Of a stretch of 64,000 bases of DNA, positions 28,629 to 60,022 are shown piece by piece. This stretch comes from Pseudomonadota bacterium (GTDB lineage Bacteria > Pseudomonadota > Alphaproteobacteria > Paracaedibacterales > CAIOTO01). The notes under the pieces are model-generated. The model was not told where the DNA came from. It saw only the letters and a list, made by a program, of their open reading frames with translations, and searched no databases. The stretch spans positions 11,933-75,932 of the forward strand of contig JAZKDQ010000007.1 in the NCBI GenBank assembly GCA_040387495.1. Reading direction: 5' to 3'. The position numbers and the translations under genes are program-made. Numbering within the stretch: position 1 is the first letter of the stretch; each line of letters starts with the position of its first letter.

Positions 28629-29660
28629 CTACTTCTTAAAATCACAACTTTTCTTGAAAGCCCCTGCCCATTCACAATCAGAAGCTGCGATGCATGATCC
28701 TTCGTTTGCAATGGCGACACAGTTGGTTCGGCAGAATTTGTTATGCAAAGTACAAGCGGCATTTTCGCCACATGTTGTAACTGTAAACATATTACAAGCT
28801 GTTTTATGCCCAGCCACCTCAGTCGATTTTTGAACTGTTCCTTTTGCATCATCTTTATTTTCACTTGTTACTATTTGAGCATCTGCCTGAGGAATTGAAG
28901 TTATTGATGCAGGAACGTTTAGATTTACCATTCTAGAGCTGACTTCATCCTTCACTTGCTTTTTAATCACTTCTTTCAATTCAGCCATCAGTTCTATTTT
29001 TATTGCTTCTTGTAAACCCGGAACATCTTTTTTAGGCTCCGCGGTTGGGACTACTGATTTATTCCCAAGATCAACTACTGGCTCTGTTGTTGGCGCAATT
29101 GCAGGCACAAGTGCTTTCTGTGATAAAGTTTCTTGCTTTACATCAGCTGGTAATGCTGGAGCTGCTGCTGGCATTGCAACTGACTCTGCTACTTTATTCA
29201 TTGTTGCTTTTTCTGCTGCTTTGGTTTCGTCCTTAGCAGTTACTTTTGCTGCTTCCTTTTCATTTTTTGTTAATTTTTTAGTTGATTCTACAGCAACAGG
29301 TTCTGCTGCAACAGGCTTAGGATCTGCTGCTACAACCGGCTTAGATTCTGCGGATACAACTGCTTTAGGGTCTGCTACTACAACTACTGCTTTAGGGTCT
29401 GCTTTAGGTTCAGCAGTTACAACTGCCTTAGGTTCTGCCACTGTAACTGCCTTAGGTTTTATTACTGCAACCTTTTTAGGATCTGCGGCCGTTTCCTTTA
29501 CAGGCCCAGCAGTTACATCTGGCTTACCACCTGTTGGCGTAGTCTCTGCAATCTTTGAATCAGCATTAACCGCGCTATTAAGCGTCAAAAGGCACATACT
29601 TACAAAAGCTATTTTTAAACCAATAAAGTATCGATTGATCGTTGACGTTTTTACTTTCAT
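28629..29660 (-). CDS. Hypothetical secreted protein with Pro/Lys/Ala/Val-rich repeats and a C-terminal Cys/Trp-rich module
   Basis: 343 aa with a signal peptide. Degenerate AEPKAV/ADPKAV repeats. C-terminal CNMFTVTTCGENAACTLHNKFCRTNCVAIANEGSCIAASDCEWAGAFKKSC. Confidence 0.75.
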   Translation of the reverse strand: MKVKTSTINRYFIGLKIAFVSMCLLTLNSAVNADSKIAETTPTGGKPDVTAGPVKETAADPKKVAVIKPKAVTVAEPKAVVTAEPKADPKAVVVVADPKAVVSAESKPVVAADPKPVAAEPVAVESTKKLTKNEKEAAKVTAKDETKAAEKATMNKVAESVAMPAAAPALPADVKQETLSQKALVPAIAPTTEPVVDLGNKSVVPTAEPKKDVPGLQEAIKIELMAELKEVIKKQVKDEVSSRMVNLNVPASITSIPQADAQIVTSENKDDAKGTVQKSTEVAGHKTACNMFTVTTCGENAACTLHNKFCRTNCVAIANEGSCIAASDCEWAGAFKKSCDFKK

Positions 29661-29720
29661 ATTGATGTATCCTTTAAATGCAACAAACTAATATCATTAA
29701 AAAAAATATACCATGCAATT

Positions 29721-29736
29721 GATTAACAAATTGTTA
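29721..29736 (-). promoter_or_regulatory. TTAACAATTTGTTAAT box (TTAA-N7-TTAA), with 60 nt between the box and the 29660 start codon
   Basis: Read on the minus strand. It matches the boxes at 1434 and 2253 at 13 and 12 of 16 positions respectively. Confidence 0.35.
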
Positions 29737-29772
29737 AATTAAAGAAAAATGTATCCCAAAATATAAATATAA

Positions 29773-58481: not shown

Positions 58482-58573
58482 CAAATATTAATTCTTCCAT
58501 GTCAAATTCTAGATAGATGGTGGAAGTTTGTTATTTAGATTTCCTCATTTTATAGAAAATTTTGGAGGTTTAA

Positions 58574-60022
58574 ATGAAATTAAAATTAAAATTACTAGGC
58601 ACGTGTTTAGGTCTTGTTTTATCCTGCACAAATTCATATGCAGTAACTGGTGTAAGTGAATTATTAAATGGAGTGGGAGCTGGTGTAAGTGCTCTCGGTA
58701 CTAAAGTAATTTTACAAGCAAATGCAAGTGATATCGCTGCTTTGGACACAGTTGTTGTTGCTAACTTTACCACAGGGCAATTTGCAGGGTTATCTACAGT
58801 TCAAATTCCTGCATTAACAACAGCGCAACTTGCTGGCGTAACAACAGCGCAAATAGGTGCAATGACATCGGCGCAAGCTAAAGTTTTAACTTCAACACAA
58901 GTTGCGGCTCTTCCTTCCATTAGCAATATGGGGTCAGCTGTTATTACAGCTATAACCACAGCGGCACTTCCAAGTTTACCAACATCACTACTCACTACGT
59001 TAACAACAGCACAAATTGCTGCATTGACAGCAGCGCAAGTGGGTGTTTTATCAGCAGGACAAGCTTCTGCATTAACAACCACACAAATGCCTGCATTAGG
59101 AACAGCACAGCTTGCGGCCATGACTTCGGCACAATTTGCTGCTTTATCATCAACTCAAATTAATACATTGTCAAATTCAGGTGTTGCAAGCCTTGGATCA
59201 GCAAAAATAGCAGCCATGCCAACTTCAGTGATGAGTGGTCTATCAACAGCTTTAGTTCCTTATATAGTTGACACAGTGATACCATATATGACAACAGCTC
59301 AAATAGCTGCGATACAATCTGCCCAATTAGCCGTTTTAGACCTGACACAAGTCAACGCCCTTACATCGGCCCAATTAAGTGCTATAGGTAGTGCTGTATT
59401 TTCAGCATTGACTTCTCGTCAAATCCCTGCTTTGCATACAGCAGCACTTGCTGGCATACCTACTTCAGTGATGAGCGCTATAACCCTTGCACAAATTACA
59501 GCACTAAACACAGCTCAATTAAATGCTTTGTCATCAGCTCAAATAAACTCCATACCATCTGGAACCTTTTCCACATTAACAACAGCGTCAACGGGGCAAA
59601 TCCCCAGTTTACCGACATCGCTCATTGCAAATCTTCCAACCACCCTATTAACAGGTTTAGGAACAAGCTTAACTGCTTTAACATCAACTCAAGTAAATGC
59701 CTTGACATCTACACAGCTCAGCGCAATGACAACAAGTGTAACAAGTTTATCTTCATCCGGTATTCGAGGACTTAATTCTAACAATATTGCTGGCTTAACC
59801 ACAGCAGCATTAGCTGGGTTAACATCAGCAAAGATCCAGGCAATACCTACTGCTGCTATACCTGGTGTGGACTTTGGTGCAGCGATTGCAGCAAATATCA
59901 CAGCACTTTTAACAAATACTACTGGCTTCACCACTGCGCAACAACGTGCATTTACTACGAAACAATTTGGTGCTACAAACTTTGATACATCTGTGTTTGC
60001 TACTTGGTTAACACAACACTAA
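58574..60022 (+). CDS. Secreted (possibly lipidated) protein made of ~45 degenerate octapeptide repeats [LMV]-[TS]-[TSA]-[AT]-Q-[ILVF]-x-[AGV]
   Basis: 482 aa. Signal peptide with a VLSC lipobox-like site or an SYA/V cleavage site. Runs such as LTTAQLAG VTTAQIGA MTSAQAKV LTSTQVAA ... LTTAQIAA LTAAQVGV LSAGQASA LTTTQMPA LGTAQLAA MTSAQFAA. Confidence 0.8.
   Translation: MKLKLKLLGTCLGLVLSCTNSYAVTGVSELLNGVGAGVSALGTKVILQANASDIAALDTVVVANFTTGQFAGLSTVQIPALTTAQLAGVTTAQIGAMTSAQAKVLTSTQVAALPSISNMGSAVITAITTAALPSLPTSLLTTLTTAQIAALTAAQVGVLSAGQASALTTTQMPALGTAQLAAMTSAQFAALSSTQINTLSNSGVASLGSAKIAAMPTSVMSGLSTALVPYIVDTVIPYMTTAQIAAIQSAQLAVLDLTQVNALTSAQLSAIGSAVFSALTSRQIPALHTAALAGIPTSVMSAITLAQITALNTAQLNALSSAQINSIPSGTFSTLTTASTGQIPSLPTSLIANLPTTLLTGLGTSLTALTSTQVNALTSTQLSAMTTSVTSLSSSGIRGLNSNNIAGLTTAALAGLTSAKIQAIPTAAIPGVDFGAAIAANITALLTNTTGFTTAQQRAFTTKQFGATNFDTSVFATWLTQH

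Follow-up and report, generated by a model that had tools for sequence, protein, structure and literature searches.

A predicted CtrA-type promoter element upstream of exported Cys/Trp-module proteins and dozens of other genes in an uncultured alphaproteobacterium

A 64,000-nt stretch of DNA from an uncultured member of the Paracaedibacterales (contig JAZKDQ010000007.1, positions 11,933 to 75,932; the whole stretch is referred to here as the window) contains three genes for exported proteins that are preceded by the same sequence box, which raises the question of what reads this box and whether it ties the three genes together. Two of them, g1 (1502-1981) and g2 (2321-3259), are located on the forward strand and the third, g3 (28629-29660), is located on the reverse strand. 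Our analysis points to the box being a binding site for CtrA, a response regulator of the alphaproteobacterial cell cycle, with the site lying across the -35 position of a sigma-70 promoter that needs an activator, a reading to which we assign a probability of roughly 0.75. The box appears at about 55-65 promoters of this genome, so g1, g2 and g3 would be members of a large CtrA regulon and not of a private one.

The original prediction that the three genes have a common upstream box and secreted products is borne out on both counts. The TTAACRRTTTRTTAAT pattern has three exact matches in the window, each on the coding strand of its gene, versus 0.06 expected from shuffled sequence, and allowing one mismatch adds no further site in the window. 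All three genes are open and have signal-peptide-like N-termini, and their products finish in Cys-rich tails. The boxes are TTAACGATTTATTAAT upstream of g1 (1434-1449, forward strand), TTAACGGTTTATTAAT upstream of g2 (2253-2268, forward strand) and TTAACAATTTGTTAAT upstream of g3 (29722-29737, reverse strand), the last of which has the TTAA-N7-TTAA core and forms a perfect TTAAC-N5-GTTAA palindrome. Measured from the end of the 16-mer, the distance to the start codon is 52 nt for g1 (ATG at 1502), 52 nt for g2 (ATG at 2321) and 61 nt for g3 (ATG at 29660); the two spacings of 52 nt had been given correctly, but that of g3 had been given as 60 nt. Putative -10 hexamers follow the boxes of g1 (TATGAT, 1461-1466, forward strand), g2 (CATATT, 2279-2284, forward strand) and g3 (TATATT, 29705-29710, reverse strand, 11 nt after the 16-mer box), and a Shine-Dalgarno sequence AAGGA read from the g3 leader (29670-29674, reverse strand) is located 9 nt before the g3 ATG. 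With this layout the g3 box is predicted to overlap the -35 position. A generic sigma-70 scan found no canonical TTGACA-type -35 paired with the g3 -10 hexamer, and the absence of a call at a box promoter is expected if an activator site replaces the -35. The other generic sigma-70 hits around g3 are within shuffle expectation (5 versus 3.5 ± 2.0).

We surveyed the element across the genome, which comprises 1.66 Mb on 20 contigs with 1430 crude gene calls. Upstream regions contain 159 TTAA-N7-TTAA sites as compared to 35-51 sites for each of the N5, N6, N8, N9 and N10 spacings. An N7 site occurs 25-75 nt before the start of 67 of the 1430 genes versus 10-15 genes for each of the other spacings, and therefore some 55 sites stand above background. 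We thus place the element at the -35 position of what we predict to be about 55-65 promoters, mostly of unrelated genes. The N7 sites peak 40-60 nt ahead of start codons, and in 40 of the 67 box promoters the best -10-like hexamer (TAtaaT-like) is found 11-12 nt downstream of the 15-mer. A position matrix of these promoters is near background outside of the box and the -10 region, which indicates that the element is not a dispersed repeat. The genome consensus is TTAA[C/T]AATTT[A/G]TTAAT, and the 16-mer from which the original prediction started is that consensus. When the 67 boxes are ranked for closeness to consensus with a leave-one-out position weight matrix, the boxes of g1, of C19:1226 (contig and position, as for all loci outside of the window), of g3 and of g2 rank 3, 4, 5 and 6 of 67, respectively. 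Promoter-positioned sites also exhibit a partial dyad, with position 5 being C in 32/67 and position 11 being G in 16/67. Finally, the 8-mer TTAACCAT is present upstream of genes 16 times in gene sense and 4 times in antisense.

These features match what has been published for CtrA, for which the cited motifs are TTAA-N7-TTAA(C) and the 8-mer TTAACCAT (as cited in PMC11264516, PMC9791040). All three window boxes fit the published core motif, the box TTAACCATCTGTTAAC upstream of C14:110914-112749 (the fifth member of the protein family described below) fits both published motifs, and the promoter enrichment is specific for the spacing beyond what base composition gives. The genome also encodes the regulator. 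Specifically, ctrA (C3:141327-142154, outside of the window) matches the CtrA equivalog profile NF045991 at 389.6 bits versus a cut-off of 350 with all 224 profile positions matched, and its receiver domain aligns to that of Brucella CtrA (PDB 4qpj). No more than two OmpR-type regulators are encoded, one being CtrA, and the second OmpR-family gene is located at C9:4529-5263. ChpT, the phosphotransferase that feeds CtrA, is likewise encoded (C3:79158-79748, outside of the window; PF10090, 59.8 bits). N7 sites are present 110 nt upstream of ctrA and 102 nt upstream of chpT, which suggests that the two genes are autoregulated. CtrA autoregulation is known at the Caulobacter ctrA promoters, and the sites that ctrA and chpT carry here fit that behavior. 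The ctrA upstream site is shared with a divergent gene for an exported protein (C3:142410-144320).

We next consider the proteins that led to the box being noticed. The module shared by these proteins is an 8-Cys C-terminal domain of ~58 aa, which we defined by a regular expression and then by profiles (built from 5, later 21 domains) searched against the six-frame translation of the genome. The full-domain family pattern is C-x7-C-x5/6-C-x-[WL]-x4-12-C-x3-C-x8-C-x5-8-C-x-[WY]-x5-9-C, and that of g3 is C-x7-C-x5-C-x-L-..-C-x3-C-x8-C-x5-C-x-W-x7-C. Five proteins have the full domain at their extreme C-terminus, namely g2, g3, C14:110914-112749, C3:126624-127637 and C19:1226-1561. The g2 product (~312 aa) is exported, its middle part is K/E-rich and coiled-coil-like, and its 8-Cys domain at ~2996-3200 (forward strand) scores 44.1 bits to the family profile; the g3 product (343 aa) has a signal peptide, Ala/Pro/Lys/Val-rich repeats and an 8-Cys domain at 28632-28805 (reverse strand) that scores 45.8 bits. 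A degenerate domain is present in C10:37711-38196 (E 0.004 in the six-frame genome search), and another in the 159-aa exported g1 product, which has 8 Cys in its mature part and matches the module in its second half only (E 0.012, from a search of a tiny database). The earlier view that all three genes encode the same Cys/Trp module is thus upheld for g2 and g3, which have the full domain, but for g1 reduces to a weak match to the second half. The profile search detected no further family members in the six frames of the genome, and pairwise phmmer comparisons between modules gave no significant links, so that a profile is needed to see the family. An alignment of 21 domains (A3) has 4 invariant Cys columns and 4 more that are conserved at >=90%, and the domain is present in 7/7 genomes of the genus, in 3/3 of the sister genus and in 2/31 others of the order. 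AlphaFold (AF2, run with the 21-sequence alignment) predicts a small fold of 2 hairpins and short helices at a mean pLDDT, its per-residue confidence score, of 84.

Two details of g3 and its orthologues deserve mention. Within g3, positions 29303-29471 consist of ~6-7 imperfect 24-nt tandem repeats that encode A[ED]PKAVV-like octapeptides, and the length differences among g3 orthologues (281-402 aa) probably arise in this repeat region. In a congeneric g3 orthologue (L038, G001:C5:205-381) whose 5' end runs off the contig, the second Cys is replaced by Tyr and the fourth by Ser with all other Cys kept; these paired losses hint at a disulfide between the second and fourth Cys, or at a decaying copy.

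Box and module are strongly associated. An N7 box is found at 43-62 nt in 6 of the 7 module genes, with the exception being C10:37711, which has only a TTAA-N11-TTAA sequence. Background rates are ~5% for all genes (67/1430) and ~10% for genes with exported-looking products (43/420); counting g1 and g2 once, 5/6 independent loci have the box (binomial p ~5e-5). The box is also retained in relatives. For example, the g3 box occurs at 59-62 nt in 6/6 orthologous promoters (4 exact, 2 with 1-2 mismatches in the distal half-site), where the -10 hexamer is kept as TAtAnT and the Shine-Dalgarno sequence AAAGGAT is conserved. These g3 orthologues are located in a thrC-g3-rdgB(Ham1)-ECH gene order, being present between thrC and rdgB in 4 metagenome contigs. 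A g2 orthologue in another genome (G001) has TTAATAATTTATTAAT at the equivalent place, the C14 orthologues have TTAATAATCTATTAAT, TTAACTATACGTTAAC, TTAACTCATTTTTAAC and TTAACTCAATTTTAAC, all at 51-54 nt, the C3:126624 orthologues have TTAATTTTTTGTTAA[GT] at 43-54 nt, and two relatives of 955-1024 aa have TTAATATTTTGTTAAG at 54 nt. Overall, across orthologues of g3, g2, C14 and C3:126624 from at least 6 other genomes or contigs, the two TTAA half-sites stay in place (43-62 nt), whereas spacer and flanks diverge. This conservation, together with the association of box and module, indicates that g1, g2 and g3 are likely co-regulated.

The co-regulated secreted family that had been proposed therefore needs to be redrawn. 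A real cis element does precede 6/7 module genes and the genome-wide association of box with module is strong, but the element is not specific for the family: dozens of unrelated genes also have the box upstream, and one module gene lacks it. That the box is widespread upstream of unrelated genes was an outcome named in advance as speaking against a dedicated family regulon, and it is what we observe; module genes without the box, the other such outcome, are limited to C10:37711. Within the window itself, two more TTAA-N7-TTAA boxes precede genes that both encode exported proteins, these being TTAATAATATATTAA (CtrA-type, TTAATAATATATTAAC) at 45090-45104 on the forward strand, 49 nt before the ATG of 45154-46185 (343 aa), and TTAACCAAATATTAA at 58477-58491 on the forward strand, 82 nt before 58574-60022. 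We predict that the 45154-46185 gene belongs to the same regulon as g1, g2 and g3. The genes at 48253 and 60344 are preceded by weak one-mismatch sites, and those at 7449, 12159, 13566, 16270 and 20975 have no core box upstream even at 1 mismatch. The statement that the other orphan genes of the window lack the box is accordingly true for the strict 16-mer but overlooked the TTAA-N7-TTAA core before 58574.

Part of the sharing between g1 and g2 has a simple origin. A tandem duplication produced both 5' regions, each consisting of tsaD tail, box and signal peptide; 1360-1520 aligns with 2180-2340, spanning ~50 nt of the tsaD 3' end through the box and into the signal peptide. A decayed fossil of the tsaD 3' end (~40-50 nt) that includes the stop codon (…CTTGAGGGATAA) is present between g1 and g2 on the forward strand at 2196-2234, matching the tsaD tail at 1376-1414, and CTTGAGGGATAA, the tsaD stop region, is found at only two places in the genome. 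The mature parts of g1 and g2 have no significant similarity to each other. This pattern could have arisen by tandem duplication of a unit comprised of tail, box and signal peptide, or by insertion of a cassette at the tsaD 3' end. The box sharing of g1 and g2 therefore counts once and not as independent evidence. The duplication also bears on a GGGATA motif that had been noted in front of the box and that we reject as part of the element: the motif does precede all three boxes, but the g1 and g2 copies are the tsaD stop region and its fossil, and it is absent near the other box promoters. Since GGGATA occurs in only 3/67 box promoters, the g3 copy, one of 528 sites in the genome, is best read as chance. 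Similarly, there are 5 genomic copies of the 10-mer TTGGGATACA, about as many as chance would give. The 10-mer TGTATCCCAA is present on the forward strand at 2177-2186 and 29751-29760, upstream of g2 and g3 in opposite orientation to the genes, and with 5 genomic occurrences we judge this sharing to be chance as well.

Could the box then be a leftover of shared ancestry, promoters having been copied along with paralogues, or a chance product of AT-rich spacers that has no regulatory meaning? The shared tsaD tail, box and signal peptide of g1 and g2 show that such duplication does occur, and the intergenic DNA is AT-rich. We nonetheless disfavor this explanation as very improbable given that three exact 16-mers are found where 0.06 are expected, that a four-fold excess specific to N7 cannot stem from base composition, that the upstream regions of g3, C14, C3:126624 and C19 share only the box and -10 hexamer, that the box precedes dozens of genes with no relation to one another, and that orthologues keep the half-sites while their spacers diverge. 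Binding by CtrA that leads to repression, with the box either sitting between an upstream promoter and its gene or occluding polymerase, is a little less improbable and remains distinctly unlikely. CtrA is known to repress some promoters, such as hemE Ps and via upstream pilA sites (PMC11264516), and just upstream of the g3 box there is a 9-of-12 sigma-70-like match (TTAGCA-16-TATATT, 29787-29760) that, if it were a real promoter, would put the box downstream of the start where it would repress. However, this weak match falls within the shuffle expectation given above for g3 (5 versus 3.5 ± 2.0), the fixed 11-12 nt from box to -10-like hexamer genome-wide is the geometry of an activator, and single near-consensus -35 sites activate in Caulobacter (PMC11264516).

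The match upstream of g3 is one of several observations that weigh against CtrA-dependent activation. GcrA is absent from the genome and canonical CtrA targets could not be shown among the box genes; a box gene at C1:235959 that we considered as FlgB has no Pfam support, and therefore we claim no flagellar target. Gene starts come from a crude open reading frame (ORF) caller. In addition, the TTAA half-site is a palindrome on its own and the sites tend towards TTAAC-N5-GTTAA, which is compatible with a symmetric dimer of another family. This last point leads to the alternative that a different regulator acts on the same element, either the second OmpR-type protein or a symmetric helix-turn-helix dimer on TTAAC-N5-GTTAA, in which case there would be a secretome regulon without CtrA. 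The partial dyad among the sites, the perfect palindrome of the g3 box, the existence of the second OmpR-family gene and the lack of a verified classical CtrA target are all congruent with this alternative, and of the three considered here it is the least improbable. We still regard it as unlikely in view of the core, spacing and 8-mer variant being exactly those of published CtrA motifs, of the CtrA equivalog exceeding its curated cut-off over the full length including the DNA-binding domain, of ctrA and chpT themselves carrying the site, and of the predicted layout overlapping -35 being that of CtrA-activated promoters (PMC11264516). CtrA as the binder, activation as opposed to repression, where transcription starts, restriction to a stage and what the domain does are all deduced here from sequence.

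When analyzing the predicted regulon as a whole, its content is dominated by exported proteins. Specifically, 43 of the 67 box-gene products look exported by a crude hydropathy test versus 420/1430 overall (odds ratio 4.7, p = 2.7e-9), and most of the box-gene products are orphans. Pfam matches among the other box genes include the sheath protein VipA/TssB of a type VI secretion system (T6SS), a platform protein of the type II secretion F (T2SS-F) type, DciA, Usg, an alternative oxidase and a sigma-70-family protein, which from reading its sequence we take to be RpoH-like. Sites are likewise located ahead of genes that we presume from their N-termini to be rpoD, rpoC, cysS and typA. In the case of the T6SS sheath gene (C6:13543-14205, Pfam 177 bits) the box is located 45 nt upstream, and further genes that we take from their N-termini to be T6SS-like (C9:32288-34868) have boxes 82-120 nt upstream. 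The T6SS machine may thus be under the same control as the other box genes.

We also looked more widely for relatives of the 8-Cys domain. Searching the A3 profile against 1.84 billion representatives returned 218 proteins at E <=1e-3, and those at the top are giant proteins in which the unit is repeated in tandem 12-76 times; Bodo saltans CUG90295 and a transcript from Ploeotia vitrea are among them. One of these relatives (P0007) matches the A3 profile at E 1.9e-40 with 12 full-length repeats and passes PF01508 (Paramecium_SA) at 35.4 bits, which links the family at profile level to an accepted PF01508 member. P0007 is encoded at 79570-93477 of a 98-kb contig (L058, ENA ERZ27275054 k141_132316) that is crowded with small ORFans on both strands and has the look of a giant virus or large phage from a protist-associated community. 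Single repeats score modestly (15-30 bits). Matches of the bacterial family to PF01508 itself are below threshold in 9/21 domains (best E 1.2e-4), a relative from another genome (G014) reaches 17.9 bits versus a gathering threshold of 21.2, and g1, g2 and g3 have no PF01508 match at E up to 1. With the window proteins below the PF01508 cut-off, we therefore describe the module as a relative and not as a certified member. Overall it appears to be a bacterial, single-copy, C-terminal and remote relative of protist surface-antigen-type Cys repeats. The likeness to PF01508 consists of an 8-Cys unit of ~57-62 aa with C-x-W motifs, whereas the bacterial domain differs in being single-copy and at the very C-terminus, preceded by a Sec signal and by a region that is either of low complexity or coiled-coil. 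A PSI domain (PF01437) was also considered and rejected. Only g1 scores against it (15.1 bits versus a cut-off of 23.1), the best Foldseek match is plexin A1 (E 1.9, TM-score 0.46), and the plexin/RON PSI matches are non-significant. Like PSI, the bacterial domain is a small knob rich in disulfides and has a C-x-W motif, a resemblance only, but the 'W-C' and 'C-x2-C' signatures of PSI are absent from it.

Taken as CtrA-dependent activation, the system would operate as follows. A phosphorelay from a putative CckA through ChpT would phosphorylate CtrA, and CtrA~P would then bind the two TTAA half-sites, which are one helical turn apart. Bound CtrA would contact RNA polymerase at -35 and recruit it to the -10 hexamer 11-12 nt downstream. 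In this manner g1, g2 and g3 would be transcribed during CtrA activity, alongside about 55-65 other promoters, presumably at a particular cell-cycle or developmental stage. The resulting regulon would be dominated by Sec-exported, lineage-specific proteins, with the Cys/Trp module proteins forming one family within it. Each module protein would be an extended low-complexity or coiled-coil structure that ends in an oxidised, exposed, disulfide-rich 8-Cys knob that contacts the host, and these are probably envelope or surface proteins.

Comparison with better studied CtrA systems shows both likeness and difference. In Caulobacter crescentus, the majority of promoters that CtrA activates carry one near-consensus site that overlaps the -35, and there are ~100 target genes (PMC11264516). 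The present element shares with that system its core motif and 7-bp spacer, a predicted -35 position with a downstream -10-like hexamer, a similar regulon size (about 55-65 excess promoters here) and a site that precedes ctrA itself. In contrast to Caulobacter, roughly two thirds of the products here are exported and are mostly orphans, accompanied by T6SS and T2SS-F-like genes, while genes for flagella, pili, division and methylation do not make up the bulk of the regulon and GcrA is missing. The local consensus is also AT-rich (TTAAYAATTTRTTAAT) with a C after the promoter-distal half-site, and the regulon here is a prediction from sequence. In the obligate intracellular Ehrlichia chaffeensis the CtrA regulon includes bolA, surE, ompA, gshA/B and gst, with sites of the form TTAA-N7-TTAAC or TTAACCAT (PMC9791040). 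Both organisms would be of the intracellular or symbiont type, a status that is presumed for the lineage studied here, with CtrA targets that include envelope and stress genes and not a free-living cell-cycle programme. The sites cited for Ehrlichia are, however, often far upstream (gst, -181 to -166) with no fixed -35 class reported, nor is a target set in which the secretome dominates described there (PMC9791040).

The mechanism of CtrA control is thus already known, and what is most interesting here is the secretome-heavy predicted regulon along with the protist-type domain. A bolder scenario is that CtrA has been turned into a master switch of a stage-specific secretome (T6SS, a putative papain-like protease and orphan exported proteins by the dozen) in a probably protist-associated lineage. 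One of the best-wired families of that secretome would then end in a surface-antigen-type Cys knob that came from protists or their giant viruses and is exposed to touch or mimic the surface of the host, as part of a transmissive-stage programme like that of the Ehrlichia dense-cored cell; we offer this tentatively, as a possibility that we consider rather doubtful. At a more immediate level, an anonymous shared box is replaced by a named mechanism, providing a predicted CtrA regulon of ~60 promoters for an uncultured lineage, and the TTAA-N7-TTAA and -10 geometry could be used to locate promoters and correct start codons in related metagenome-assembled genomes. If the prediction is true, then a reduced, symbiont-like alphaproteobacterium would time the production of its exported, host-facing proteins via the conserved CckA-ChpT-CtrA relay, and the compact, well-folding 8-Cys domain that it shares with protist surface proteins would be a candidate host-interaction module.

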